DNA of 31,582 nt, from positions 1-31,582 of the forward strand of contig JAZDOL010000052.1 in NCBI GenBank assembly GCA_043798775.1, written 5' to 3'. Position 1 is the first letter of the stretch. Each line of letters begins with the position of its first letter. Origin of the DNA: a bacterium. Lineage in GTDB: Bacteria; Patescibacteriota; Minisyncoccia; Minisyncoccales; GWA2-46-15. Below the pieces are notes generated by a model. It made no database searches. It saw only the letters and a list, made by a program, of their open reading frames with translations, and was not told where the DNA came from. The translations under genes were made by a program, and so were the position numbers. Shown piece by piece: positions 1 to 12,072 of this stretch.

Positions 1-1103
1 TCTTCCCCCGTTAATCTGGTCTCGATTGTCACCTTGCTTCCTTTGTAAACGGTTGTCGGCTGGGTTTCGTTCAGTTGGTAGTATTTGTTCTTATATCTCA
101 CCACATAATCGTTGCCGACCGTCCTCTCTTCTTGGAGGGAGAATACTTGGTCGAGATCTATTCGTTCTCCTATCTGCCGGTGCAAGTCTGTCTTATTCTT
201 CGCAACAACGCTGAACTTGGCGTTAAATTTAGGAATGAACTCTTCGTTCAAAAATCGATTGGCTTCTTCTGCGTTTCTAATATTCCTAAATCGTAATTCT
301 CTGACCAATCTTCCTTGCAGTGTTCCGTTCATCTTCTCCACTCGACCTTTGGCCTCCGGGCTATTGGCGGTAATCAATTTAATTCCTATTTCCTTTGTCG
401 CTCTCTGGAACTGAGTCAGCAAATCCTTATTATCCACCGCGTTTTTGTGGTTAATTTTGTAGGTCGAGAACTTGTCGAGATAAATCGTCAAAGGTCGGCC
501 ACGGCGCTCGATGTATTCCTTCCAAAACCTGAATACCGCCAACACCGATTCGTTATCCTTGAACATGGCGCCGGTAATCTTGCCAGTGGCATCATCGACC
601 GCGAGCAGAAGACATTGCTCTTCCTTTGTCGAAAACCAGTGATGATAACTGCCGTCAAACTGTTCCATCTCTCCGTAACTGTCCTTTCTTTCTCTCTGCG
701 AGAAGTATTGCGGCTTCTTTCTCGCCTTGCGTTTCCAGAGACCCTCCTTAATCATCAGTTGTCTTATTGTTTCTTTGTTGGTTTTAATATTGTCATCATC
801 TTCCAAGTGTTCTTTGGCCAAAAGCGGGTTGAAGTAGGGATACTTCTTGTGAAGCAGAGAGACGATCTTATCCCTGATCTTGTCGGCCAATTTCCGGTTG
901 CCCGTCTTGCCTCTGTTTCCATGGATTATTCCTTTGGGGCCGAGGGTAATGACACTTCTCTTTAATCTGCGAGCCTGCCTGACAGATAATCCTATTTGCT
1001 TTCCGGCTTCGGTTCCGTTGATCTTTTTGTCGATTAGATTACTGATGATTAAAAACCTTTCTGCTTCTCTTTTTGTCATAGTAATTGTTTCTTTTGTGGA
1101 CAT
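1..1103 (-). CDS. IS1202/ISNCY-family DDE transposase, C-terminus runs off the window edge
   Basis: Manual translation from ATG at 1103: MSTKETITMTKREAERFLIISNLIDKKINGTEAGKQIGLSVRQARRLKR...IIHGNRGK (HTH), then EQFDGSYHHWF, YLDKFSTY and SPEAKGRVEKMNGTLQGRL (D-D-E triad). Open to position 1. Absent from the ORF track because it has no stop in the window. Confidence 0.93.
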   Translation of the reverse strand, partial: MSTKETITMTKREAERFLIISNLIDKKINGTEAGKQIGLSVRQARRLKRSVITLGPKGIIHGNRGKTGNRKLADKIRDKIVSLLHKKYPYFNPLLAKEHLEDDDNIKTNKETIRQLMIKEGLWKRKARKKPQYFSQRERKDSYGEMEQFDGSYHHWFSTKEEQCLLLAVDDATGKITGAMFKDNESVLAVFRFWKEYIERRGRPLTIYLDKFSTYKINHKNAVDNKDLLTQFQRATKEIGIKLITANSPEAKGRVEKMNGTLQGRLVRELRFRNIRNAEEANRFLNEEFIPKFNAKFSVVAKNKTDLHRQIGERIDLDQVFSLQEERTVGNDYVVRYKNKYYQLNETQPTTVYKGSKVTIETRLTGE

Positions 1104-1203
1104 ATTTTCGGTAGTTATCAATGATAACTACCGATACCACAAAGAGCGTTACTAGGACATTTCTATCTTGCCCGCACTAGGACATTATCATATTGCCTCA
1201 ACA
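1..1203 (-). mobile_element. IS1202-family (ISNCY) insertion sequence, left part
   Basis: On the minus strand the end begins 5'-TGTTGAGGC at 1203. An 11-bp subterminal repeat ACTAGGACATT occurs at 1151-1161 and 1176-1186. A 27-bp palindrome (1108-1134) precedes the transposase ATG. TGT ends with repeated subterminal sites are typical of this family. Confidence 0.85.
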
Positions 1204-1853
1204 GGGGAATCGAGTAATTGTTGCTTCTGGTATACGATTATCAAATCTTCGCCGATTTCCGTAATTACAAGCTCTTTTCTATCTTCGATAACCCCAAAAC
1301 CGTCGTTCGCTTCTTTTACTAACCGTTCCCTGGTGTAACATTCTTCTCGTTTTGGTTGATTAACGCCATCTTGTTCCGCGATAGCGAACATTAAGCTGTC
1401 CCATGTGTTTTTCAGGTAGTTAGGTTCGGGCTTGACTACCGGATCACAGATCACGAGGTATTTTTTGGCAGATTGATAGCAGTATTTAATAAATACCGAC
1501 CTGTCGGCTGGCTTTAGATGATGAAGGATATCACAGACAACAACAACATCCGCCGGTTTATAATTATTTTGGTCTAAAACATTGCCGACAGATGCGTTAA
1601 CTCCTCTACTTTGGGCGTATTTTACAAACCGATCGTTAGTATCAAATCCGTAATAATTAACAGAAGGGGGCAAGTAATCAACAAGAATTGCCGGTCCACA
1701 TGCCGGTTCTAAAACACTATCGTTATTTTTCGCAAAACTTGCCATAAACCGATAGCGCTTGTCAAAATCAGCTCCATGGATATGTTTCAGCCCCCAAATA
1801 TAAAGTCTGGGGGATTGATAGAAAATGCTTTTTGAGGACATAATTATTTTCAA
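1188..1853 (-). CDS. Class I SAM-dependent methyltransferase
   Basis: VLEPACGPA (motif I), GFDTN (motif II), VVVCDILHHL. The last codons (VEAI*) come from the IS end. The real start may be the ATG at 1841. Confidence 0.85.
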   Translation of the reverse strand: MKIIMSSKSIFYQSPRLYIWGLKHIHGADFDKRYRFMASFAKNNDSVLEPACGPAILVDYLPPSVNYYGFDTNDRFVKYAQSRGVNASVGNVLDQNNYKPADVVVVCDILHHLKPADRSVFIKYCYQSAKKYLVICDPVVKPEPNYLKNTWDSLMFAIAEQDGVNQPKREECYTRERLVKEANDGFGVIEDRKELVITEIGEDLIIVYQKQQLLDSPVEAI

Positions 1854-1905
1854 CGACTACATGAAGCAACCGCAAGGTGAACAAGGATAAAACATGTAGA
1901 TATCG

Positions 1906-2072
1906 AGGCCAAGTCTGACTTGGCCTGCCATTCGAAGCATGACTTAATTTGAGTCCGTTCTTCGCCCTTTGGGCTTCGAAGGACCCTTCTTCTTTCTCTT
2001 AAAATAACCTAATTATTATTTATGTTGGCTCGCCCTTCGTAGCTCGACGTGTTAACGAAGAGCGAAGAAGGG
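1906..2072. repeat. Cluster of REP-like palindromes 3' of tRNA-Gly
   Basis: Perfect palindrome AGGCCAAGTC-T-GACTTGGCCT at 1906-1926. TTCGCCCTTTGGGCTTCGAAGG (~1961-1982) and CCTTCGTAGCTCGA...GAAGAAGGG (~2034-2072) are related to elements at ~3020-3075. Confidence 0.6.
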
Positions 2073-2144
2073 AGCGGGTGAGGGGAATCGAACCCCCGTA
2101 TCTTGATTGGCAATCAAGTGCACTAACCATTATGCTACACCCGC
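2073..2144 (-). tRNA. tRNA-Gly(GCC)
   Basis: Minus strand GCGGGTG-TA-GCATAATGGTTAGTGC-A-CTTGA-TTGCCAA-TCAAG-ATAC-GGGGG-TTCGATT-CCCCT-CACCCGC-T. Full cloverleaf, U73 discriminator, no complete encoded CCA. Confidence 0.96.
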
Positions 2145-2812
2145 GTTTGCGCTCCGCCAAAATATTGAGAAGCGAGACCAATCCAGATAAGGATTTTCTC
2201 TTTAAGTCCTCTACTCAATACACAAACTGTGCACATTCCGTGACTAACTTTCTTGCGAATCATTTTTCCCTTAATGAATTGAGTTTTCCAAAATTGTTCT
2301 TTAGGGATTCCGGTTTGTTCTCTCCAAAATTTATTGCAATCTTCCTCCGATAAATCGGGATAAAGAGTGGTACTTACTATTATTTTTTCCTTTGGAACTT
2401 TGCATATTTCTGACAAGAATCTGATAAACAAAGGCAACATTCTTTCGTCTGTATTCACCAGAGAAACTCTTCCGTTTTCAGCTTTTTTATCGCCTTCTCC
2501 CCAGTAAAGCATTATGCCGGTTATAAACAGAGGATTCGAAGCTAATTCCGGAAATTCTTCCATCGCTTCTTTTCTGTAGGATTCTCTCCATGCTGCCCAC
2601 TTTTGCTTGTTTTTTTCCGCCATTATTCTTATTCGTACATTTGTTTCAATTCTCGCCTTTGCGGTTAAAGTTTCTTTTGTTTTTTCGGACCATGGAACAT
2701 TTCTAAACCAGCAACCGATTGTACTTTTGGGTATGTTAAGTTTTTTCGATATCTCTCGATAGCTGTTCCCATTTCTTCTTAAAATAGTCGCTAACTCTTT
2801 ATCTTTTCTCAT
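2135..2812 (-). CDS. HTH + LAGLIDADG-like domain protein between tRNA genes
   Basis: N-terminal HTH (SYREISKKLNIPKSTIGCWF), then GIMLYWGEGDK, which resembles a single LAGLIDADG helix, followed by VSLVNTDERMLPLFIRFL. The stop codon lies inside the tRNA-Gly 5' end. Confidence 0.75.
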   Translation of the reverse strand: MRKDKELATILRRNGNSYREISKKLNIPKSTIGCWFRNVPWSEKTKETLTAKARIETNVRIRIMAEKNKQKWAAWRESYRKEAMEEFPELASNPLFITGIMLYWGEGDKKAENGRVSLVNTDERMLPLFIRFLSEICKVPKEKIIVSTTLYPDLSEEDCNKFWREQTGIPKEQFWKTQFIKGKMIRKKVSHGMCTVCVLSRGLKEKILIWIGLASQYFGGAQTRV

Positions 2813-2814
2813 GT

Positions 2815-2856
2815 TAGACCATTACTTATACATTTATAGTATAACACATTGGTCTA
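2815..2856 (-). promoter_or_regulatory. Extended -10 promoter enclosed by an inverted repeat
   Basis: Minus-strand TG-T-TATACT (hexamer at 2843-2838), flanked by TAGACCA (2815-2821) and TGGTCTA (2850-2856). Confidence 0.55.
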
Positions 2857-2875
2857 TTTGTGAAAGTTCATTTTT

Positions 2876-2951
2876 TGGTGCCGCGGGTCAGACTTGCACT
2901 GACGACACTATCTTTTTCAGAGATATGCTCTACTACCTGAGCTACCGCGGC
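2876..2951 (-). tRNA. tRNA-Phe(GAA)
   Basis: Minus strand GCCGCGG-TA-GCTC-AGGTAGTA-GAGC-A-TATCT-CTGAAAA-AGATA-GTGTC-GTCAG-TGCAAGT-CTGAC-CCGCGGC-A-CCA. CCA is encoded. Confidence 0.96.
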
Positions 2952-3088
2952 GTGTGTTGCGTTTGTATTAATGATAAGCAATGAATCGGGCGATTGCCTT
3001 GACTTAATATTGCTCGTCCGCCCGTAGCTCGAACGAAGCCCTCCTTCGCCAAGGCTTCGAAGGGTGAAGGGGAAGCTACCGCGGCGTG
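2940..3088. repeat. 15-bp direct repeat AGCTACCGCGGCGTG covering the tRNA-Phe 5' end
   Basis: Identical at 2940-2954 and 3074-3088, bracketing a REP-like palindrome. Confidence 0.8.
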
Positions 3089-3178
3089 ATAAGTTTTACT
3101 TGTTAAATGTCCAACGCATCGATATTTCATATAGACCCATTGATGCCTGTCCGCAGTAGTCCCGCTTAGCGGGACCGC

Positions 3179-3283
3179 GACATATTTTCGGTAGTTATCA
3201 ATGATAACTACCGATACCACAAAGAGCGTTACTAGGACATTTCTATCTTGCCCGCACTAGGACATTATCATATTGCCTCAACA
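3179..3283 (-). mobile_element. Orphan IS1202-family left end, exact 105-bp copy of 1099-1203
   Basis: Base-for-base identity from the terminal ACA through both subterminal repeats and the palindrome to the transposase ATG plus 2 nt. No transposase follows. Confidence 0.93.
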
Positions 3284-3347
3284 ATTTGTCGAGGGGCTTG
3301 CCCCGAGTGGATTCGACGAGCTCACCATTACAACTTTGTCGAAGGAG

Positions 3348-3421
3348 TGGGCGAAAGAGGACTCGAACCTCTGACCTCTTCTGTGTAAGAGAAGCGCTCT
3401 AACCAACTGAGCTACCCGCCC
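3348..3421 (-). tRNA. tRNA-Val(TAC)
   Basis: Minus strand GGGCGGG-TA-GCTC-AGTTGGTTA-GAGC-G-CTTCT-CTTACAC-AGAAG-AGGTC-AGAGG-TTCGAGT-CCTCT-TTCGCCC-A. No encoded CCA. Confidence 0.95.
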
Positions 3422-3460
3422 GTAAGACCCAAGAATCCTTCATGTTACAAAAAATTGTGA

Positions 3461-3500
3461 CAAAAAAGGAAAACGGGCAATATCACGAAGTGATATTGCA
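3461..3500 (-). terminator. Probable intrinsic terminator of the RT gene
   Basis: Perfect 10-bp stem GCAATATCAC/GTGATATTGC (3477-3499) with a 3-nt loop, followed on the minus strand by CCGTTTTCCTTTTTT. Confidence 0.7.
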
Positions 3501-3549
3501 AACCCTAAACCGGAAACAGCCTGCTCCGCGGCATTATATCGTTCCGGCC

Positions 3550-5949
3550 TCAAGTTTTAAGAGCACGCGCCGTTGGCGCGAATCTTGGGTCCGTATTCCC
3601 AATATAGCCGAGAACCCTTCTTCTGGCAATAATTTTTTTTGTGTTTAAAGTAATTCTAACCAGATTAGCCAGGCCGTGATTATTATGCAATTCATCGTTG
3701 GTTAAACGGCGACGATCTCTAAGATGAAATCTTTTATACACGGCGACTCTTATCCTGTCGCATATATAGTCATCGAGTTGGTTAAGGAGGCGGAAATCGT
3801 TAATTCGGGAATAATACCTAATAAATGAATATTGCTGGTTTAAGGCGTATATCAGCCTGTTGATATAATTGATAATCTGGCGAAGGGTTCTTTTCTTATT
3901 TCTTTTTGTCAGTTTAACTATCTTTTTCTTAAATTGGGCAATATTGTATTGGTCAATGGTTATTAGTAATGGCTGGCCATCTTTTTTCTGAAACGAATAG
4001 CCAAGATATTCAACGGAAAAATTTTCATCATTATTTATGTTTGAATACCGTTTTTCATCCCATGCCATATTCAGCTTTTGAAGATAGAGGGCGAATTGGG
4101 TGATAAAGTTTTTATTATTCTTGTCGTAGATTATCAGAAAATCATCGGCAGTTCTTACAAACATTGCCGACAGCGGTTTTATGTAAGAATCGATTAGCGA
4201 CAAATATGTTTCCACGAGAATATTGTTTATCGGTGTACCCCGAGGCAATCCGGCAATGTTTGTTTCTAGAAGACGGTTGAACAAAGAACCGATTATCTGT
4301 TCAATATTACGGTTAACTGACACGCTCTGTAATATTTCCCGAATTATCCGGCGGTCTAGTCGTTCATGAACTCGGCCTAAGTCAATTCGCAGTAAACGAT
4401 AATTGTCTCTATTCTTGTTGAATAATCGCATCAAGCGAATTGCCGAACCAACCTTGCTATATACGCAATCATTTGCCATCAGTAGCTGTGGATATAAAAT
4501 TTTCTTCAAGTACAGATGCGTTGCCCGAAGAGCAATCTTTTCGTTGATGCTGTGGCTTATTATCGGTTTAACAGAGTGTCCGTTTAAATGAGTTTCAGAA
4601 AATGAAATTTGTTTATTTTTCAATAATTCAGACAAACGAATCGAATTCTCTTTTCGATTTACGAAGTACTCTTTCCATAGAGGAGAAGTTGTAGAGGGTC
4701 TAAAATAGTGGATAAAAGATTGTTCCAGCTCTTTGGGTGAAAATAGGCGATCAAAAAAGTTTTTTCTTAAAAGATGGGCCTTCTCCATTCTATGGAATAA
4801 GCAATGCGAGGAGATAAAACCGAAATTATGGAACAAACGATAGGGGGCTTGGCGAATAGCTCTTCCGCTCCACGAACCGGTAATCTTGTGGCGGATGTGG
4901 GAGACTAACCAATCATCGATCTTCGTAAACGGATAATCATTCCCGACTAATACAAAATATTTCATCCGGCTCTTAATTGGGCTTTCGGTTAAAAGATTAT
5001 TAATTTCGTAAAAAAAGAAACTGAATAGGTATCGATTGTCGCCAATACAGTTAAGCGATAACTTGCGGTAGGCTAACTTATTCATTATCGAAAGCAATCG
5101 TCGTTTAATTCTTTTAATCGTTGCTTCCTTGAAATTTATATTGCCATTCTTGAAATAGAAACCGATATAGTCAAAGCCATCTCTTGGCGAAAGTAATTTT
5201 GTCTTTTCTGAAGATAGCGTCAATTCTTGGTCGGATAGCTCTTTAGTAATGGTTCCCATTATCGGTTCGGGATTATTTTTCCCAATAAGAATAATATCGT
5301 CGCCGTACCGATAATAACAAATTGTTTTTTGATTCATATTCCGGTCGAATGGCAGTAAATAAAGGTTTGCTAAATCGTTAACCGGAGAGAGTCCCGTGGG
5401 AAGGCCGGGGCCGGAGAAATTAATCAATCTTTTGATTGTTCTTACGATATTTTTATCTAGGTCGCATTCTTTTCGCGCGTTGTCAACCATTTGCGACATT
5501 TTTTCCTTATTAATTGAGTCGTAGAAGCTTTTAATATCTGCTTTAATCGCCCATTCTCCCAAGCGGTTATCTGAAAAAGCGATTGCCGATCGAATAGCCC
5601 TTAGTATGCCGGCTGGATTATCTTTTTTCTTGCGATAACCGATAACATAGTCCGGCAACATCGGTCCGGTCTTTTCCAATAAGTATTGATGAAGATAAAT
5701 CAGGACCAGTTCGTCTTTCAATGTCGCGCTCTGATAAACAGTGCGATGTTTGCCGTTCTCTTTAGGGACGCGAAAACTTATAAATGGATAAAATTCATAA
5801 TCGCCACTACTTAATGGATCGATAACTTTATCGGTAAGATACTCGTCTTTTAGCGATAAAAAATCTTTGTGGTCGGGAAAAGAAAAAAAACGTTCCGGCT
5901 TGCCGTAAATTGATCTGATTATTCTATGAGCATTATCGATTGTAAGCAT
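3550..5949 (-). CDS. Tandem double reverse transcriptase (RT-RT fusion), group II-like palm and thumb in each half
   Basis: RT1 (aa ~1-395): VPKENGKHR, GYR, ADIKSFYDSI, GLPTG...ANLYL, RYGDD (5307-5296), FDYIGF and a thumb. RT2 (aa ~396-799): LFSPKELEQSF, RIDLGRVHERL, GLPRG...ETYL, RTADD (4152-4141), EYLGY and a thumb with LDDYICDRIR. Confidence 0.92.
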   Translation of the reverse strand: MLTIDNAHRIIRSIYGKPERFFSFPDHKDFLSLKDEYLTDKVIDPLSSGDYEFYPFISFRVPKENGKHRTVYQSATLKDELVLIYLHQYLLEKTGPMLPDYVIGYRKKKDNPAGILRAIRSAIAFSDNRLGEWAIKADIKSFYDSINKEKMSQMVDNARKECDLDKNIVRTIKRLINFSGPGLPTGLSPVNDLANLYLLPFDRNMNQKTICYYRYGDDIILIGKNNPEPIMGTITKELSDQELTLSSEKTKLLSPRDGFDYIGFYFKNGNINFKEATIKRIKRRLLSIMNKLAYRKLSLNCIGDNRYLFSFFFYEINNLLTESPIKSRMKYFVLVGNDYPFTKIDDWLVSHIRHKITGSWSGRAIRQAPYRLFHNFGFISSHCLFHRMEKAHLLRKNFFDRLFSPKELEQSFIHYFRPSTTSPLWKEYFVNRKENSIRLSELLKNKQISFSETHLNGHSVKPIISHSINEKIALRATHLYLKKILYPQLLMANDCVYSKVGSAIRLMRLFNKNRDNYRLLRIDLGRVHERLDRRIIREILQSVSVNRNIEQIIGSLFNRLLETNIAGLPRGTPINNILVETYLSLIDSYIKPLSAMFVRTADDFLIIYDKNNKNFITQFALYLQKLNMAWDEKRYSNINNDENFSVEYLGYSFQKKDGQPLLITIDQYNIAQFKKKIVKLTKRNKKRTLRQIINYINRLIYALNQQYSFIRYYSRINDFRLLNQLDDYICDRIRVAVYKRFHLRDRRRLTNDELHNNHGLANLVRITLNTKKIIARRRVLGYIGNTDPRFAPTARALKT

Positions 5950-5954
5950 AAGAG

Positions 5955-6103
5955 TGTTAGCACTCTAACGCAAGCAAATAGTGGTCTATTACCCGACAAG
6001 CGGACAAGTTCAGGCATCGCGCCCAATTTGCCTGAAAACTTATCGGGCTTTCGATTAAAGGCGCCCCTGAATCGCGCATAGATAAAGGGATAGAGTGCTA
6101 ACA
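5955..6103 (-). ncRNA. Putative RT-associated structured ncRNA (~149 nt)
   Basis: Perfect 13-bp terminal inverted repeat TGTTAGCACTCTA (5955-5967) / TAGAGTGCTAACA (6091-6103). Internal stems CGATT/AATCG, CCCGATAAG/CTTGTCGGG (a G-U pair favours the minus strand), TTCAGGCA/TGCCTGAA and AATAG/CTATT. It ends 5 nt before the RT ATG. Confidence 0.7.
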
Positions 6104-6109
6104 GCTGTT

Positions 6110-6118
6110 ATCATATCA
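6110..6118 (-). promoter_or_regulatory. Extended -10 promoter (TG-A-TATGAT) for the ncRNA-RT unit
   Basis: Minus strand TGATATGAT at 6118-6110. The expected TSS 6-7 nt downstream falls at ~6103-6102, the start of the 13-bp inverted repeat. Confidence 0.55.
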
Positions 6119-6123
6119 CATTG

Positions 6124-6269
6124 ATTATTTGGTATACCTCGCAGTCTCTCGGGTCTGAAACTCGGGATCGATGACTTGCCGCGAGGAACTAAATAATTAG
6201 GATTCCAAAGGAGGTCACTTCTTTGGTTACTCGGCAGGGTTTAATGCCCCGCTGAGCGAAACGCATTAA
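6124..6269 (+). other. Second structured intergenic element of unknown identity
   Basis: Nested stems ATTATTT/AAATAAT, CCTCGC/GCGAGG, AGTC/GACT and TCTCGGGT/ACTCGGGA. Separate hairpins CCAAAGGAG/CTTCTTTGG and TTAATGC/GCATTAA. G-U pairs in the first two hairpins favour the + strand. Confidence 0.45.
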
Positions 6270-6388
6270 AAAATTATAATTTACAATCAATGATTTAAGT
6301 GATAATCTTGGGTTGTAATTATTAGGATTTGTTTTCTTAAATCGAGGCGAAATAGCTGTCAAAACTGTTTCTATAAATCATTTTTCAA

Positions 6389-6940
6389 ATGTATTTTGCC
6401 CACCTTCCAGCGTCATATTTGATGATTAGATTTGTCGAATTATTCGGGATTAGTTTTTCGTTACCGGAAACAGTAATCATTGCTGTTAGTGGAATCGTTC
6501 CGGATTTTGATTTAATACTCGGGTTTATCCGACGCTGTGGCCATCACCGGCTTTTTACTCATACCCCGATGTGGATGGTCGTTATCTGGATGATAATTAT
6601 CGGTCTGTGTGGGATGGCCGGAGTCGAGTTGTCGCTAATGGCGATAATTATGATCCTATTTTCTTTAATACTTCACTTGGTTCTCGACGATCTTGGTTGT
6701 TACTGGTTTCACAGATTAGGCTTACAAAGCGATAATTGTGGGCCACGAATAATATGGTTGTATCCGATACAAAAAATGCCAAACGATGAAAGTGGAGATT
6801 TAAAAATAACCTCTCTTGCAAATTATTGCATTGAATCGCTTCCTATGTATTTTAAAAAATACCCGGCTAATCGTTGGGCGGAAATAATAATTATTCTAAC
6901 GGCAGTCATTGTATTCTTAATATCAAATAATTTATGTTAA
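6389..6940 (+). CDS. Membrane metal-dependent hydrolase (YdjM/DUF457-like)
   Basis: AHLP, PDFD, HHRLFTHT and LHLVLDD motifs with transmembrane segments. Confidence 0.8.
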   Translation: MYFAHLPASYLMIRFVELFGISFSLPETVIIAVSGIVPDFDLILGFIRRCGHHRLFTHTPMWMVVIWMIIIGLCGMAGVELSLMAIIMILFSLILHLVLDDLGCYWFHRLGLQSDNCGPRIIWLYPIQKMPNDESGDLKITSLANYCIESLPMYFKKYPANRWAEIIIILTAVIVFLISNNLC

Positions 6941-7692
6941 GTCTCGACCCGGTGATTCTCACTCTGTTAAGTGTTTTAGTTGTCAGCTTAATTTCTTTCG
7001 TTGGCGTTATTAATCTTGCTTTCGGTAGTCAGCGAATAAAGTCCACGATTTCGTTTATGGTAAGCTTTGCCGTTGGTGGACTGTTTGGCGACGCTTTTAT
7101 TCATTTGCTCCCAGAAGCGTATGTCAGGTTGGGAACAGGACTAAACACGGCGTTATATGTGATTGGCGGTATTTTCATATTTTTCATTTTAGAGAAGTTT
7201 ATGAGGTGGCGTCATTGCCACGATAATGAATGCGAAGAGCATAATCACCCAGTTGCCGCTACGGTTCTTGTTGGTGACGCGTTCCATAACTTTTTTGACG
7301 GAATGCTAATTGCCGCCAGTTATTTAATTTCTCCGGAAATCGGCATTGCGACTACCACTGCCGTGGTCTTACACGAAATACCGCACGAGATGGGAAATTT
7401 TGCCGTACTAATTCACTCTGGATATACGGTTAAGAAAGCGTTGATCTATAATTTTATTTCTGCTCTCACGGCTTTTGTCGGAGCAATTGTTTCTTTGGTT
7501 GCCGGGTCGGGAATCAGCAATTACTCATTAATCCTTATACCGATTACCGCTGGGGGATTTATATATATCGCCGGATCCGACTTATTGCCGGAATTGCATC
7601 ACGAGACTCGCGCCTCCCACTCGCTTAAGCAATTATTAGCCATTGCTTTAGGGGTTCTTATTATGGTTTTATTGGCGCTAAAAGAAAGCTAA
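6934..7692 (+). CDS. ZIP family metal (Zn) transporter
   Basis: FIHLLPEA, His-rich loop HCHDNECEEHNH, HNFFDG, LHEIPHE, LLPELHHE. Confidence 0.93.
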   Translation: MLSLDPVILTLLSVLVVSLISFVGVINLAFGSQRIKSTISFMVSFAVGGLFGDAFIHLLPEAYVRLGTGLNTALYVIGGIFIFFILEKFMRWRHCHDNECEEHNHPVAATVLVGDAFHNFFDGMLIAASYLISPEIGIATTTAVVLHEIPHEMGNFAVLIHSGYTVKKALIYNFISALTAFVGAIVSLVAGSGISNYSLILIPITAGGFIYIAGSDLLPELHHETRASHSLKQLLAIALGVLIMVLLALKES

Positions 7693-7701
7693 CGATAAGA
7701 T

Positions 7702-8556
7702 ATGCCAGAATTGCCTGAAGTAGAAACTATTGTAAGATATTTAGATAAAAATATTTGTGGCAAGAAAGTTACCGATGTTTTGGTGTTATCTAAAAAACAA
7801 TTTCCTCAAGATTCAAAATTGGTAATTGGCGCTAAGATATTATCGGTTAGCCGTCGGGGGAAAAACACGATTATTAGCCTGTCAAACGGCAAGACGATGA
7901 TTGTTCACTTAAGAATGACTGGGCAATTGATTTTAATGGACGGCAATAAAGAGAAATACGAAACAGGGAAAGTGATACCCCTAAGCGGCGGGTCGGAATT
8001 ACCCGCCAGATCAACGAGGGTAATAATTAGTTTGAATGGCGGCAAGCTATTTTTTAACGAATCACGGAAGTTTGGCGCAATTCGTGTTGTCAGCAATGCC
8101 GAGGCCGATAAAGAGGCAGATAAATTAGGGCCGGAGCCGTTTGGAAAAGATTTTTCGATTGATTATTTAACCCGTATTTTCAAAAAGACCGCAAAACCGA
8201 TTAAGGCGTTATTGTTAGATCAAGAAAAAATTGCCGGGATTGGCAATATTTATGCCAGCGAAATATTATTTGAAGCAAAAATTAACCCCAAAAGACCGGC
8301 AAAAGGCCTGAACCGAAAAGAAATAATAGCGCTTTACTGCGCGACCCTATCTATTCTTAAGGAGGCGATTAAGTATGGCGGTTCGAGCGCTTCCGATGAA
8401 GCGTATATTCAGCCAGACACCAGCCGTGGGTTATATCAAGATTATGCCCGTGTTTATCAACGCGATGGACAGCTGTGCCGAAAATGTAAAGCGTTAATCA
8501 AAAGGGTTGTTATTGGCGGTCGGGGGACATTTTATTGTCCGAATTGCCAAAAATAA
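7702..8556 (+). CDS. mutM: Formamidopyrimidine-DNA glycosylase
   Basis: N-terminal PELPEVE, HLRMTG, H2TH motif IAGIGNIYASE, and C-terminal CRKC...CPNC zinc finger. Confidence 0.97.
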   Translation: MPELPEVETIVRYLDKNICGKKVTDVLVLSKKQFPQDSKLVIGAKILSVSRRGKNTIISLSNGKTMIVHLRMTGQLILMDGNKEKYETGKVIPLSGGSELPARSTRVIISLNGGKLFFNESRKFGAIRVVSNAEADKEADKLGPEPFGKDFSIDYLTRIFKKTAKPIKALLLDQEKIAGIGNIYASEILFEAKINPKRPAKGLNRKEIIALYCATLSILKEAIKYGGSSASDEAYIQPDTSRGLYQDYARVYQRDGQLCRKCKALIKRVVIGGRGTFYCPNCQK

Positions 8557-8567
8557 TCGACTTTTTT

Positions 8568-9344
8568 ATGCTTGAAGAAGAAGTAATCACAATCAATGGT
8601 CAGGAGATCAAATATCTGAAACGCCTAAACGACGGACCGATAGTTTTATTTTTACCGGGAATCAGCGGAACGCACAAAGGATGGACGCGGGTTATCGACA
8701 AGTTGTCAAGTCGTTTTTCGGTAATTAGCATCTCCCTACCGCCATATAGCGGGGATAACGACCTGGTATCGTTACCTAAATTGGTGAAGGGATTCATTGA
8801 CGAGATGGATATTAAAAAGGTTATTCTCGTCGGCCATTCTTTGGGCGGCTTAATCGCTTTAAGAGTCAGCTCTCTTTATCCTGAACGGGTATTGAGGGTG
8901 GCAATTGTCGCTTCGCCATTGCCAGATATTGAAAAAAGAAAATTTATTAGGGGTATCATTCCTCGATTTAAGGAAATTAAGAATGTTGATAAATTAACTC
9001 GCTATTACGGAAGTCACGAAAAGCTGATAAATAATCTGGCGCGTTTCTTAGATTACGGACAGGGTAGTGAAAAAAAGATGAACGAAGAAGAATGGAATAA
9101 GTTAGTTTGCTGTATTATCGATATTGTTAACCACCAGTGGATTAAAGATATCGGAAAGGTTAAATGTCCGTCATTGATTGTTTATGGAGATGAAGATCGA
9201 GCGCTTGTATTTTTCGGCGGTACCGAATTATATTCAAAATTCAAAGATGTCATAATTTTAAAAATTGGTGGCGATCACCGATTGCCAAGAGATAAATCAG
9301 GCGAATTAGCGCTAATTATCAACGGCTTTGCCTGTGAAGAGTGA
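8568..9344 (+). CDS. Alpha/beta fold hydrolase
   Basis: FLPG oxyanion motif, GHSLGG nucleophile elbow, YGDED and GDH. The ATG at 8568 is preferred over the TTG at 8535 that overlaps mutM. Confidence 0.88.
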   Translation: MLEEEVITINGQEIKYLKRLNDGPIVLFLPGISGTHKGWTRVIDKLSSRFSVISISLPPYSGDNDLVSLPKLVKGFIDEMDIKKVILVGHSLGGLIALRVSSLYPERVLRVAIVASPLPDIEKRKFIRGIIPRFKEIKNVDKLTRYYGSHEKLINNLARFLDYGQGSEKKMNEEEWNKLVCCIIDIVNHQWIKDIGKVKCPSLIVYGDEDRALVFFGGTELYSKFKDVIILKIGGDHRLPRDKSGELALIINGFACEE

Positions 9345-9393
9345 TGGATAATAATAACGGATTTGGTCTTAATCAAAAAATGAGTTACGAGAT

Positions 9394-11286
9394 ATGAATA
9401 AACAAACAATCGTAGGGTTAGTAATAAGGGCAATAGAAAAATGCCAAAAGGAAAATGTTTTTCCTGTCTTTATTATCCCGGAAATTGTTGTTGAAAAGTC
9501 GCGTGACGGCCGTTATGGCGACTATGCCACGAGTATCGCGTTAAGATTGGCTAAAGATATTAAACAGTCGTCGTTAGGTATTGCCGAAAAAATTAAGAGC
9601 ATCCTTGAGGGATTGAATTCAGGTTATTTTTCAAAAATTGAAATTGCTGGACCGGGATTTATCAATTTTTTCTTAAGCGACAATTATTTAAGAAAGCAAG
9701 TTAGAGAGATTATTAAAAAAGGAGAAAAATATGGCGAAGTTAATATTGGCAAAAAGAAGAAAGTGATTGTCGAACATACGAGTGTTAATCCTAATAAAGC
9801 AATGCATATCGGCAATTTAAGAAATGCTATTCTAGGTGATAGTATAGGCCGTTTGCTTAGAAAGGTTGGTTATTCTGTAGAGATTGAGAATTATATAGAC
9901 GATACCGGCTCTCAAGTGGCCGATACGGTTACAGCTATTCTTTATTTAAACAAAAAACCAAAAAACAAACAAATGTTTGATGATTTTTGTTGGGATATTT
10001 ATGCCGAAATCAATCGGCTATACGAAACAGAACCGCAGTTATTAGAAAAGAAAAAAGAAGTTATTAAGAAAATCGAAGAAGGAAACAATAAAACTGCCGA
10101 TTTAACCGAAGAGGTTTCTAATAAAGTTTTACAATGTCATCTTCAAAGGTTGGCGGAATTTGGTATATTTTACGATCTTCTAGTTTACGAAAGCGATGTG
10201 ATTAGGTCGGGTTTTTGGGAGAAAGCATTTAAACAACTCAAAAACAATCCTCGTTTTATCCTTGAAACCCAAGGAGAACAGAAAGGATGCTGGATTTTAA
10301 AATACGAGGGGAGTGGCGGCAACAAGATTTTCGTGAGAAACGACGGAACTAAAATTTACACGGCTAAAGATACCGCTTATCATCTTTGGAAATTTGGTTT
10401 ACTGAAAAAAGATTTTTTGTATAAAAGATGGTCTTGGAAAATAGGGAATAAAAAGATATGGAAAACTAGTCAAGGTGGTATCCATAAAAACAATTTTGGC
10501 AGAGCGGATAAGATAATAAATGTAATCGACGAAAGGCAATCTTATCCGCAAGAAATGGTTAAACTTGCCCTTAAGTCTCTTGGTTTCGAAAAGGAAGCTG
10601 ATAATTATCACCATCTTGCCTATGGAGTGGTTTATCTTTCGCCCTTAACTGCCAAAGAATTAAAAATAGATATTTCTGACAATAAGCCATTCTATGCAAT
10701 GGCCGGGAGGAAGGGCATAGGAATCAAAATTAGCGATTTGGTAGAGTTGTTAACCAAAAATATTAAAGAAAAAGAAAGGGACAGAACAGAAGAAATAACG
10801 AAAGACAAAGAATTTGCTACTAGCTTAGAGATTGCCGTTGGAGCTATCCGTCACTATATTTTAAAGTATAATTACCGATCCCAGGTTATTTTTGATTATG
10901 ATCAGGCTTTATCTTTAAATGGTAATACCGGTCCCTATCTTCAATATTCCCATGTTAGGGCAGCTGGGATTTTAAGAAAAGCGGGAAAGTTTAAATACCA
11001 ATTTGATAAAAAAGAAGATCTAAGTCCAAGTGAAAGGGGGATGATAAAGAGCTTGAGTCGATGGCCAGAGATCGTTGAAGAAACTGGCCGTGATTTTGCG
11101 ATTTCCCGAATCACAGATTACGCTTTTGAACTTTCCTCCTGTTTTCACCTTTTCTATGAAAAAAACCCAGTTATAAAAGCGAAAGGCATTGTTAAAGACT
11201 TCAGATTAACATTAGTTTTCGCCTATCAGAAAATCATTAGTGATGTGCTTTCGGTTATGGGAATCTCTAGCCCCAAGCGGATGTAA
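9394..11286 (+). CDS. argS: Arginine--tRNA ligase
   Basis: GDYAT, AGPGFINF, EHTSVNPNKAMHIGNLRN, GNTGPYLQY, and C-terminal MGI..P.RM. Confidence 0.96.
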   Translation: MNKQTIVGLVIRAIEKCQKENVFPVFIIPEIVVEKSRDGRYGDYATSIALRLAKDIKQSSLGIAEKIKSILEGLNSGYFSKIEIAGPGFINFFLSDNYLRKQVREIIKKGEKYGEVNIGKKKKVIVEHTSVNPNKAMHIGNLRNAILGDSIGRLLRKVGYSVEIENYIDDTGSQVADTVTAILYLNKKPKNKQMFDDFCWDIYAEINRLYETEPQLLEKKKEVIKKIEEGNNKTADLTEEVSNKVLQCHLQRLAEFGIFYDLLVYESDVIRSGFWEKAFKQLKNNPRFILETQGEQKGCWILKYEGSGGNKIFVRNDGTKIYTAKDTAYHLWKFGLLKKDFLYKRWSWKIGNKKIWKTSQGGIHKNNFGRADKIINVIDERQSYPQEMVKLALKSLGFEKEADNYHHLAYGVVYLSPLTAKELKIDISDNKPFYAMAGRKGIGIKISDLVELLTKNIKEKERDRTEEITKDKEFATSLEIAVGAIRHYILKYNYRSQVIFDYDQALSLNGNTGPYLQYSHVRAAGILRKAGKFKYQFDKKEDLSPSERGMIKSLSRWPEIVEETGRDFAISRITDYAFELSSCFHLFYEKNPVIKAKGIVKDFRLTLVFAYQKIISDVLSVMGISSPKRM

Positions 11287-11340
11287 ATAACCCCTTATCT
11301 TTTGCGATAATTAACTTCATACCGTTGTTTTCTGTTTATC

Positions 11341-11369
11341 TTGACAATAAATTAAGTAGCGATTATTAT
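11341..11369 (+). promoter_or_regulatory. Sigma70 promoter of the vapBC operon
   Basis: TTGACA (11341-11346), 17-bp spacer, TATTAT (11364-11369). Confidence 0.8.
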
Positions 11370-11408
11370 TAAAAGTAAGGAATCGTTAAAAAGTAAACCT
11401 TAGAGATT

Positions 11409-11648
11409 ATGACTTACCAAACAACGATAACAAAAAAAGGACAACTCACTATTCCTAAAGGCATCAGAGACGCTTTGGGAATCTTAGCGTTGCAAAAAAT
11501 GGTCATTAGATTCGAAAAAAAAGAACGGGAAATCAGGATTAAGCCGATTCAGGACTTTTTTCAATCAGCAAGGCAAATAAAAGTCAAAAAGAAAAGAAAT
11601 CCATTAGAAGCAAGAAAATATTTGGAAAATAATTATGTTCGTTCCTAA
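11409..11648 (+). CDS. AbrB/MazE/SpoVT-family antitoxin (VapB-like)
   Basis: TTITKKGQLTIPKGIRDALG AbrB signature. Overlaps the downstream PIN gene. Confidence 0.9.
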   Translation: MTYQTTITKKGQLTIPKGIRDALGILALQKMVIRFEKKEREIRIKPIQDFFQSARQIKVKKKRNPLEARKYLENNYVRS

Positions 11649-12072
11649 TTATTTCATAGATAGCAATGTTTTTTTACGGCCGGTGGTTAAAGACGATAAA
11701 AAAGCCGCTGATGACTGTGAAATAGTCCTTAAAAAACTAAGTCAAGAAAAGAAAAAGTTTTTTACTTCGACTTTGGTTTTAGCAGAAATCATCTGGGTTG
11801 GAGAAAAGTTTTACAAGATCCCCAAAGCGGACATCGTAATAATTTTGAAGGGGATATTGGCTATAAGAAATTTGAAAGTAATTGATAAATTTAATCCCAT
11901 TTGGGCAATTGAAGAATACGGCATTATGAATATAAAGTTCATTGATTGCCTATTGGCCTCCATCTTATTTGGTCAGAGAGGAAAAATGACGATTGTTTCT
12001 TATGACCGCGACTTTGATAAAATTAAGGGGCTAACACGCGTTGAGCCGCAAGAAATAATAAACTTTTTGTAA
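11635..12072 (+). CDS. vapC: PIN-domain toxin (VapC family)
   Basis: FIDSNVFLR, LAEI, FIDCLL and SYDRDF acidic PIN residues. Confidence 0.9.
   Translation: MFVPNYFIDSNVFLRPVVKDDKKAADDCEIVLKKLSQEKKKFFTSTLVLAEIIWVGEKFYKIPKADIVIILKGILAIRNLKVIDKFNPIWAIEEYGIMNIKFIDCLLASILFGQRGKMTIVSYDRDFDKIKGLTRVEPQEIINFL

Follow-up and report, generated by a model that had tools for sequence, protein, structure and literature searches.

What is the role of a single protein that carries two reverse transcriptases (RTs)? This question is raised by a contig of 31,582 nt (JAZDOL010000052.1, positions 1 to 31,582 of the forward strand, assembly GCA_043798775.1; referred to below, at its full length, as the window) from a bacterium assigned by GTDB to Patescibacteriota (Minisyncoccia, Minisyncoccales, GWA2-46-15). 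An initial annotation, made by reading the sequence, pointed to a gene, designated here RT-RT, whose 799-residue product (P0001) contains two successive sets of RT motifs, RT1 and RT2, in one open reading frame (ORF). Our analysis places this protein in a previously undescribed family, in which a covalent double RT and a leader RNA are the distinguishing features within the DRT-like systems that combine an RT with a non-coding RNA (ncRNA). In our assessment, the chances are about even (probability roughly 0.5) that a promoter, a 149-nt leader RNA, the RT-RT protein and a terminator constitute a stand-alone unit, which would synthesize DNA, with RT2 performing a second step, and would most likely serve in defense.

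A conserved fusion of two reverse transcriptases

The fused protein is genuine: its ORF, which lies on the minus strand (the initial annotation gave no strand), is uninterrupted, and equally intact counterparts were found in a sister species and in seven or more additional, independent assemblies. A word-index homolog search returned one relative, the 797-residue protein P0002 of the sister species, which is 64% identical and is encoded at a syntenic position beside YdjM and ZIP genes; the genome scan showed that the genome carrying it is labeled uncultured Candidatus Saccharibacteria bacterium. An exhaustive phmmer search over 1.84 billion cluster-representative proteins detected seven proteins below 1e-30, each of 740-858 residues with two RT domains and all from other assemblies, and an eighth relative, P0011, which is a truncated RT-RT protein. 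Homologs came from Saccharibacteria, Dojkabacteria-like, Anaerolineae and Deltaproteobacteria metagenome-assembled genomes (MAGs), and the public name of the Anaerolineae and Deltaproteobacteria proteins is 'hypothetical protein'. In addition, scanning genomes with an alignment of five family proteins identified the sister genome and one Dojkabacteria MAG locus, whose 832-residue product is 49% identical to P0005. Full-length homologs in both the phmmer search and the genome scan keep the two halves together, and neither search found a separate two-gene form as a homolog.

The initial annotation had named homologs that are always two separate genes, together with a stop or frameshift near residue 395 in reads, or else a place in an already described tandem-RT family, as grounds for rejecting its reading; neither was observed. 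The sole interrupted copy, L009:555-2910 (GCA_054040455.1), has a frameshift near position 1150 in RT1 and an in-frame TAA (1861-1863) at the start of RT2, and was called as three RVT_1 ORFs; it is probably a decaying copy rather than a two-gene version. A gene for a CYTH-domain protein overlaps the end of RT-RT in L009, and a CYTH gene was also seen near the P0003 locus (L004). Protein P0034, from a 1.6-kb contig, is the RT2 part of another RT-RT copy.

Comparison of the two Saccharibacteria species showed saturated synonymous sites (proportion of synonymous differences, pS, ~0.74) and a nonsynonymous proportion (pN) of ~0.21. The ratio of nonsynonymous to synonymous substitution rates (dN/dS) was ~0.07-0.18, with similar values for RT1, RT2 and the linker between them. 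Thus, both RT1 and RT2 are under purifying selection.

Occurrence of the family was limited. The genome of the window (785 kb, 96.8% complete) contains RT-RT as its only RT, in a single copy. The gene is present in 2 of the 11 genomes of the taxonomic family to which the window's genome belongs (one genus), and the only full-length match among 401 sampled genomes of the phylum (Patescibacteria) was the window's own, the rest being single RTs. JGI metagenome contigs and IMG/VR viral contigs yielded single-RT relatives only and no fused RT-RT, and at three of these loci a long match span was due to neighboring but distinct RT genes. Adjacent unfused RT genes were observed in L045 (Pseudomonas sp. 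RGM 3321; three genes of 471, 470 and 678 residues) and in L118 and L136 (two genes, 580 and 608 residues). No large RT-RT cluster was present in the ESM Atlas. A search of sequencing runs returned one DNA run with 7% of the words of the locus; its reads gave a single 253-nt contig (4163-4415), which is uninformative on both the junction and the RNA. With only ~ten sequence clusters, the family is small enough to explain why it was overlooked in surveys, and its sporadic spread would be typical of accessory genes.

The residues on which the initial annotation based its description of the two units were all correct in the translation and in alignments. RT1 contains D138, GLPTG (182-186), ANLYL, YGDD (215-218) and YIGF (261-264), and RT2 contains D523, GLPRG (567-571), ETYL (580-583), TADD (600-603) and YLGY (648-651). 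Both halves also matched RT profiles when they were run separately: PADLOC RT_UG17 gave 130 bits for residues 1-400 and 84 bits for residues 400-799, and NCBIfam group_II_RT_mat (TIGR04416) gave 98 and 65 bits, respectively. The Pfam RVT_1 cut-off was reached by RT1 and not by RT2, and the thumb of RT2 (671-747) had a weak match to GIIM under the cut-off (E 0.003-0.009). RT1 and RT2 of P0001 share 19% identity over ~330 aligned residues (BLASTP E 9e-8) and are therefore old copies, in agreement with the ancient divergence proposed at the outset.

An AlphaFold2 model of P0001, built on eight family members, contained two full fingers-palm-thumb units (mean predicted local distance difference test score, pLDDT, 80.9; predicted template modeling score, pTM, 0.62), and its RT1 was folded with pLDDT mostly 85-94. 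Foldseek matched the model to DRT9, which ranked first, to the GsI-IIC group II RT (template modeling score 0.70 on the target), and to G2L4, retron and diversity-generating retroelement (DGR) RTs. A profile search of PDB sequences agreed with these matches, and the best relative of solved structure was a group II intron RT/maturase. By analogy, RT1 and RT2 may form a covalent pseudo-heterodimer, a suggestion also made in the initial annotation; a pTM of 0.62 is too low to establish an interface between them.

Relationship to known reverse transcriptases

The best profiles of RT-RT halves were UG17, UG26, Drt3a or generic group-II-like RTs, with scores of 84-184 bits. When family-level scores were calibrated with reference RTs labeled by PADLOC, true members scored far higher on their own profiles (UG17, 427-494 bits; UG26, 370-507; UG27, 527). 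On the NCBIfam Drt3a profile, for which the cut-off is 200 bits, the halves of P0001 reached 78 and 58 bits, and Drt3b/UG8 was absent from the profile matches listed for either half.

An IQ-TREE phylogeny of 47 RT domains separated the RT-RT proteins into two subfamilies. In the window's subfamily (P0001, P0002, P0003, P0005 and P0006), RT1 formed a clade with support of 91/88 and RT2 a clade with support of 100/97, from which RT2 of P0005 was left out; both clades grouped weakly (78/82) with UG17, UG26 and UG27. The UG17 clade itself (100/99) excluded both halves of P0001. In the second subfamily (P0004, P0007, P0008 and P0011), RT1, RT2 and the single RTs P0009 and P0010 fell in one clade (97/94), which was nearer CRISPR-associated and group-II-like RTs. 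One of these single RTs, P0009 (L011:93-4992), nests in RT-RT subfamily A and lies beside PemK and NTP_transf_2 plus HEPN toxin-antitoxin genes, a setting that resembles a defense island.

The approximately unbiased (AU) test did not reject a single clade of all halves (p 0.114). Placing RT1 and RT2 of the window's subfamily as sisters cost 0.84 log-likelihood units (p 0.36), and a single clade of all RT2s was borderline (p 0.046). A class-2/group-II-like RT that underwent ancient tandem duplication, either once or twice, would account for these data. Judged by profiles and phylogeny, both halves fall outside the named RT groups and are near class-2 UG and group-II-like RTs. Nor does the protein fall in a described tandem-RT family: a literature search that covered the UG/Abi classification, myRT and the papers on DRT3, DRT10 and DRT11 found none in prokaryotes, unindexed papers being beyond the reach of this search.

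The kinship with group II intron RT/maturases, together with insertion sequence (IS) fragments nearby, could also indicate a selfish retroelement (a group II intron, a DGR or a remnant of a CRISPR-associated RT) or a chimeric assembly. Each of these candidates was rejected. For a group II intron, the full protein scored 157 bits on TIGR04416 against a cut-off of 300, a search of 2800-6500 with Rfam at E<=1 detected two tRNAs only and thus no intron RNA domain, and the gene is single-copy. For a DGR, no template/variable repeat (TR/VR) pair was found in the window from 1 to 12000 and no Avd domain in neighbor genes, and for a CRISPR-associated RT, scans of the protein and of ORFs over ~1-26.9 kb of the window detected no Cas domain. 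Domain scans, Rfam and the direct-repeat search hence bear out the statement of the initial annotation that cas1, avd, TR/VR pairs and intron domains do not occur nearby. A chimera of two RT genes was ruled out by the same fused ORF in at least nine independent assemblies. A selfish element or an artifact is thus hardly credible.

Active sites of the two halves

Motifs were tabulated over nine RT-RT family proteins. In RT1, eight of the nine have the motif-A Asp, an aromatic residue at +5 and Y[GAC]DD; in well-studied RTs, the +5 position is that of the sugar-discriminating gate. RT2 keeps the motif-A Asp and the motif-C DD, again in eight proteins, and its nucleotide pocket differs from that of RT1 throughout the family. 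The +5 residue is non-aromatic in 9/9 (H, N, Q or L, or C in P0008). The position in motif B that is often Gln in RTs is Arg or Lys in all nine (LP[RK]G; LDRG in P0008). Six family proteins have Y[AG]DD in RT2, the ancestral motif C, and T[AV]DD has replaced it only in the two Saccharibacteria proteins. In P0008, motifs are damaged in both halves: RT1 has YSDN, and motifs A and C of RT2 are lost.

These features raise the possibility that RT2 is a non-catalytic scaffold and that RT1 alone polymerizes, RT2 being similar to HIV-1 p51 or to a maturase and holding the RNA or the other half. Such a role would account for the missing gate residue and the substituted motif-B Gln in all members, for the change of the motif-C Tyr to Thr in the window's lineage, for the loss of motifs A and C in P0008 and for the scores of RT2, which are below those of RT1 on every RT profile. 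However, a dead site is not expected to keep the Asp triad, and the three Asp are kept in 8/9 proteins of lineages that are only 21-30% identical, six of which retain Y[AG]DD. Moreover, P0008 has a damaged RT1 as well, so it looks like a decaying gene and not a functional model. Retention of the catalytic triad inside a pocket that is remodeled family-wide argues for a specialized second activity of RT2, and we consider a purely structural RT2 improbable, though less so in the window's own lineage.

A structured leader RNA upstream of the gene

Directly upstream of RT-RT, the window contains a segment that is predicted to form a structured leader RNA (Table 1). Its closing stem is a perfect 13-bp inverted repeat (5955-5967 and 6091-6103) that encloses 123 nt. 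Between the window and the sister species, the leader is ~85% conserved, counted as invariant columns over the aligned stretch, at a distance at which synonymous sites are saturated, and three compensatory pairs are present. The same layout was detected in 8/8 loci: a closing stem of 11-14 bp around 86-175 nt that contain one short and one long hairpin plus an unpaired 3' tail, with the start codon 5-62 nt beyond the end of the stem. Eleven compensatory pairs, mainly in the long hairpin, distinguish L007 from L013, and a four-locus alignment showed compensatory changes in 9 of 20 predicted pairs, mostly in the closing stem. When only Watson-Crick pairs were counted, the length of the window's closing stem was reached in 0/500 shuffles; the corresponding counts were 0-1/500 for four loci, and the combined P over six independent loci was 4e-7.

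A covariance model built from L007, L013, L004 and L009 only ranked the element of the sister species first (1856-2003, E 0.031) and matched the window at the exact ends of the leader on the minus strand (10.2 bits, E 3). Conserved sequence elements include a UUYGAGCAU-like apical loop and a single-stranded stretch adjoining the 3' arm, in which a UUGCUUGC-like run comes after a GUAAUAG-like box. The element is single-copy in the genome. In L004, the N-terminal part of P0003 as annotated (L004:6001-6075) overlaps the leader, as it includes the 3' arm of the stem (6044-6055). The true P0003 start is probably 25 codons downstream of the annotated one, as homologs align from an internal Met.

A -10-like box, often TG-extended, precedes the 5' arm of the stem by 2-8 nt in 8/8 loci. 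A two-hexamer consensus promoter scan did not call the box of the window (6110..6118); read from the sequence, it points to a promoter with a predicted transcription start at the first bases of the closing stem. At the other end of the gene, terminator-like hairpins are no more numerous in the region than expected by chance, and the one listed in Table 1 is weak evidence for termination.

Table 1. Positions of RT-RT, its parts and its putative control elements in the window
Feature	Position	Strand	Basis
RT-RT gene (P0001), 799 residues, ATG start, two RT units in one ORF	3550..5949	minus	ORF, RT profile matches of each half, full-length two-domain homologs, dN/dS
RT1 unit, residues 1-402	4744..5949	minus	polymerase site of canonical type (D138 and YGDD, with Y143 as the gate residue) and thumb
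RT1 YGDD, residues 215-218	5296-5307	minus	motif reading
RT2 unit, residues 403-799	3550..4743	minus	D523, D602 and D603 kept; H528 at the gate position; GLPRG; thumb weakly GIIM-like
RT2 TADD, residues 600-603	4141-4152	minus	motif reading
Structured leader RNA (predicted), 149 nt	5955..6103	minus	13-bp closing stem, one short and one long hairpin, unpaired 3' tail; distance to the ATG 5 nt
Extended -10 promoter box (putative), TG-A-TATGAT	6110..6118	minus	6 nt before the closing stem, read from sequence
Terminator-like hairpin between the RT-RT stop and tRNA-Val	3477..3499	minus	10-bp stem with 4 GC pairs, T-rich tail

An inverted repeat and hairpins directly 5' of an RT gene are also what a retron would show, and the leader could then be an analog of msr-msd, the long hairpin giving rise to branched or free multicopy single-stranded DNA. 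The 11-14 bp closing repeat with its own promoter, and retron RTs among the structural matches, are in line with this idea. However, retron RT profiles scored far lower than others (NCBIfam retron_St85_RT, 60 bits against a cut-off of 235; PADLOC retron profiles, 50-55 bits, with Ec107-like at 55, against 130-202 for UG17), no retron RT was present among the 150 best sequence relatives, and no effector gene was found. The RNA layout is not diagnostic, because ncRNAs of class-2 DRT systems also combine stems with an internal template. A retron-like element is therefore very unlikely.

With the RNA included, we propose to define the RT-RT family by a two-RT ORF of 740-860 residues, a canonical RT1, an RT2 with a non-aromatic +5 residue and LP[RK]G, and a leader RNA with an 11-14 bp stem, and by these sequence features P0001 is a member.

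Genomic surroundings

Upstream of RT-RT, genes for YdjM, ZIP, Fpg, a hydrolase and ArgRS are located on the other strand. Downstream are genes for tRNA-Val, tRNA-Phe and tRNA-Gly, interspersed with IS630-like fragments, and the distance from the RT-RT stop codon to tRNA-Val is 128 nt. Other scanned ORFs of the window code for housekeeping proteins and a PIN toxin. Neighbor genes vary between lineages, and no partner gene is common to RT-RT loci. A SLATT gene is absent beside RT-RT in the window and the other examined loci; a search of the genome with PF18160 (SLATT_5) gave no match, control genomes being silent too. L007 and L013 share the order glycosyltransferase, TatD, RT-RT and, on the other strand, a class I tRNA synthetase, a pattern that indicates vertical retention in this Dojkabacteria-type lineage.

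Such surroundings bear on a different explanation, namely that RT-RT and its RNA were domesticated for a housekeeping job rather than immunity, for example end-joining or gap-filling repair as for G2L4, or production of a small regulatory or structural DNA. The gene lies among genes for aminoacyl-tRNA synthetases, Fpg, RecO, TatD and transporters, and its position is kept both between species with saturated synonymous sites and between L007 and L013 (49% identity). Strong purifying selection, G2L4 among the structural matches and the presence of RT-RT as the sole RT of a 785-kb genome are also consistent with a cellular enzyme. However, occurrence in 1/401 Patescibacteria genomes and in 2/11 within the family is too sporadic for a core function, the members are scattered over unrelated phyla, and decayed copies exist (L009 and P0008). 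In addition, tRNA genes, IS fragments and a dispersed repeat lie next to the window gene, and acquired DNA is typically found in such places. Overall, a domesticated cellular RT appears unlikely.

The dispersed repeat is a GC-richer structured segment of ~165 nt (6120-6290), just upstream of the RT promoter, that is absent from the sister species. At least four full-length copies (88% identity) and ~10 partial copies are on other contigs. It resembles a miniature inverted-repeat transposable element (MITE) or a repetitive extragenic palindromic (REP) element, and such a repeat is notable in a 785-kb genome. The structured part at 6124-6269 was considered as a second element of the RT-RT system and rejected as belonging to this genomic repeat.

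Two other features of the window were observed. An exact 105-bp direct repeat at 1099-1203 and 3179-3283 (2080 bp apart) brackets a methyltransferase-like ORF, tRNA-Gly, a helix-turn-helix (HTH) ORF and tRNA-Phe, and next to this region is an rve/HTH transposase ORF that is cut off by the end of the window. A PIN-domain ORF (11635-12072) overlaps a 79-residue ORF (11409-11648) among aminoacyl-tRNA synthetase genes, and the pair (11409-12072) is likely a VapBC-type toxin-antitoxin module.

Proposed function

How might such a unit work? From the features described above we infer RNA binding, template use, an activity of RT2 and a role in defense. Transcription would start at the closing stem, and the RT-RT protein would bind its own leader RNA. 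RT1, with its canonical dNTP-selective site, would copy a short template in this RNA, possibly iteratively, and the likeliest template would be the conserved single-stranded tail by the 3' arm (GUAAUAG followed by UUGCUUGC). RT2, with its Asp residues kept and its nucleotide pocket remodeled, might carry out a second synthesis step, e.g., of the complementary strand, or priming or extension. In this way, a single chain may accomplish what takes two proteins, DRT3a and DRT3b, in DRT3. Since RT-RT has no partner gene, the nucleic-acid product itself could act as the effector, which is the case for DRT2 and DRT9, and phage would be its most likely target.

A more specific model is offered tentatively and is itself rather doubtful: a single-chain machine with two polymerases, in which RT1 makes a repetitive first strand from a short template in the leader RNA, RT2, its nucleotide pocket being relaxed or altered in specificity, makes a complementary or protein- or RNA-primed product, and a double-stranded or composite nucleic acid acts as the effector. 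RT-RT would then be a covalent, minimal counterpart of DRT3 that is kept in ultra-small genomes of the candidate phyla radiation (CPR).

Several observations weigh against the interpretation of RT-RT as a stand-alone defense unit. RT-RT loci are outside defense islands and are syntenic among housekeeping genes in Saccharibacteria and in the Dojkabacteria-like pair; on this evidence, a cellular role fits equally well. T[AV]DD instead of Y[AG]DD in the window's lineage implies that RT2 could be weak or inactive there. As for the RNA, closing stems were only marginally longer than those of shuffled sequences when G-U pairs were allowed, and the covariance model missed the GC-rich L005 and L008, RNA sequence homology across the family being weak. 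The sequencing-run search returned no RNA run containing the locus, and the assignment of the template is a guess from conservation. Finally, the family is split in two subfamilies, which may or may not share a single origin (AU p = 0.114).

If the proposed function is correct, no known two-polymerase system would be as compact as RT-RT, a natural fusion with a dedicated leader RNA, and the division of labor between two RT sites could be tested within one protein. The mechanisms of defense RTs are being studied actively, and each newly characterized type (DRT2, 3, 9 and 10) has brought a new mode of DNA synthesis. RT-RT could also serve as a small self-contained tool for programmed DNA synthesis. 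Given its presence in Saccharibacteria and Dojkabacteria, whose genomes are below 1 Mb and have few known defenses, the system bears on genome protection or upkeep in episymbionts.

Comparison with known systems

Class-2 UG RTs (DRT2, DRT9, DRT10 and DRT3a) each act on an adjacent structured ncRNA, which they bind and of which they copy a short internal stretch, often in repeated rounds, and in DRT2, DRT9 and DRT3 the DNA product is the effector (PMC12632851; 10.64898/2026.04.29.721553; PMC13174585). Among these systems, DRT3 (UG3/Drt3a, UG8/Drt3b and an ncRNA) has, like RT-RT, two RTs and an adjacent ncRNA; both of its active RTs are needed for double-stranded poly(TG/CA), one strand is RNA-templated, and there is no separate effector (PMC13174585). 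Drt3a is also among the better profile matches of P0001, especially for RT2. However, DRT3 consists of two genes, one of class 2 and one of class 1, whereas RT-RT is one polypeptide with both halves class-2/group-II-like, and the ncRNA of DRT3 is downstream of drt3b, whereas that of RT-RT is a 5' leader.

DRT10/UG17, which consists of an ncRNA, a SLATT protein and an RT, provided the best PADLOC profile for both halves of P0001 and is a class-2 RT. In DRT10, a short structured ncRNA upstream of the operon templates tandem-repeat DNA (PMC12632851; 10.64898/2026.04.29.721553), and a conserved structured RNA with a predicted template role lies upstream of RT-RT. The difference lies in the scores (427-494 bits for true UG17 RTs on the UG17 profile, 84-171 for RT-RT halves), in the single RT of ~430-475 residues in UG17, and in the SLATT gene, which RT-RT loci lack. 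DRT2 and DRT9 resemble RT-RT as stand-alone RTs with an adjacent ncRNA and no effector gene, but they contain a single RT domain, and P0001 scored 57-91 bits for Drt2 and 81-94 bits for Drt9.

The nearest free-standing relatives are UG26, which was the best or second-best profile for several RT-RT halves, and the unclassified single RTs P0009, P0010, P0016 and P0018; unlike RT-RT, these proteins have one RT of ~400-480 residues. Function of UG26 is not known, and its association with defense is inconclusive (PMC9226505). HIV-1 RT (p66/p51) provides an analogy only: two copies of the RT fold work asymmetrically, but they are two chains derived from one sequence by proteolysis, p51 is inert, and the kinship is no closer than the RT fold. 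Seen against these systems, the RT-RT locus may represent the DRT ingredients reduced to a minimum, a single RNA together with a single protein whose two RT sites differ.

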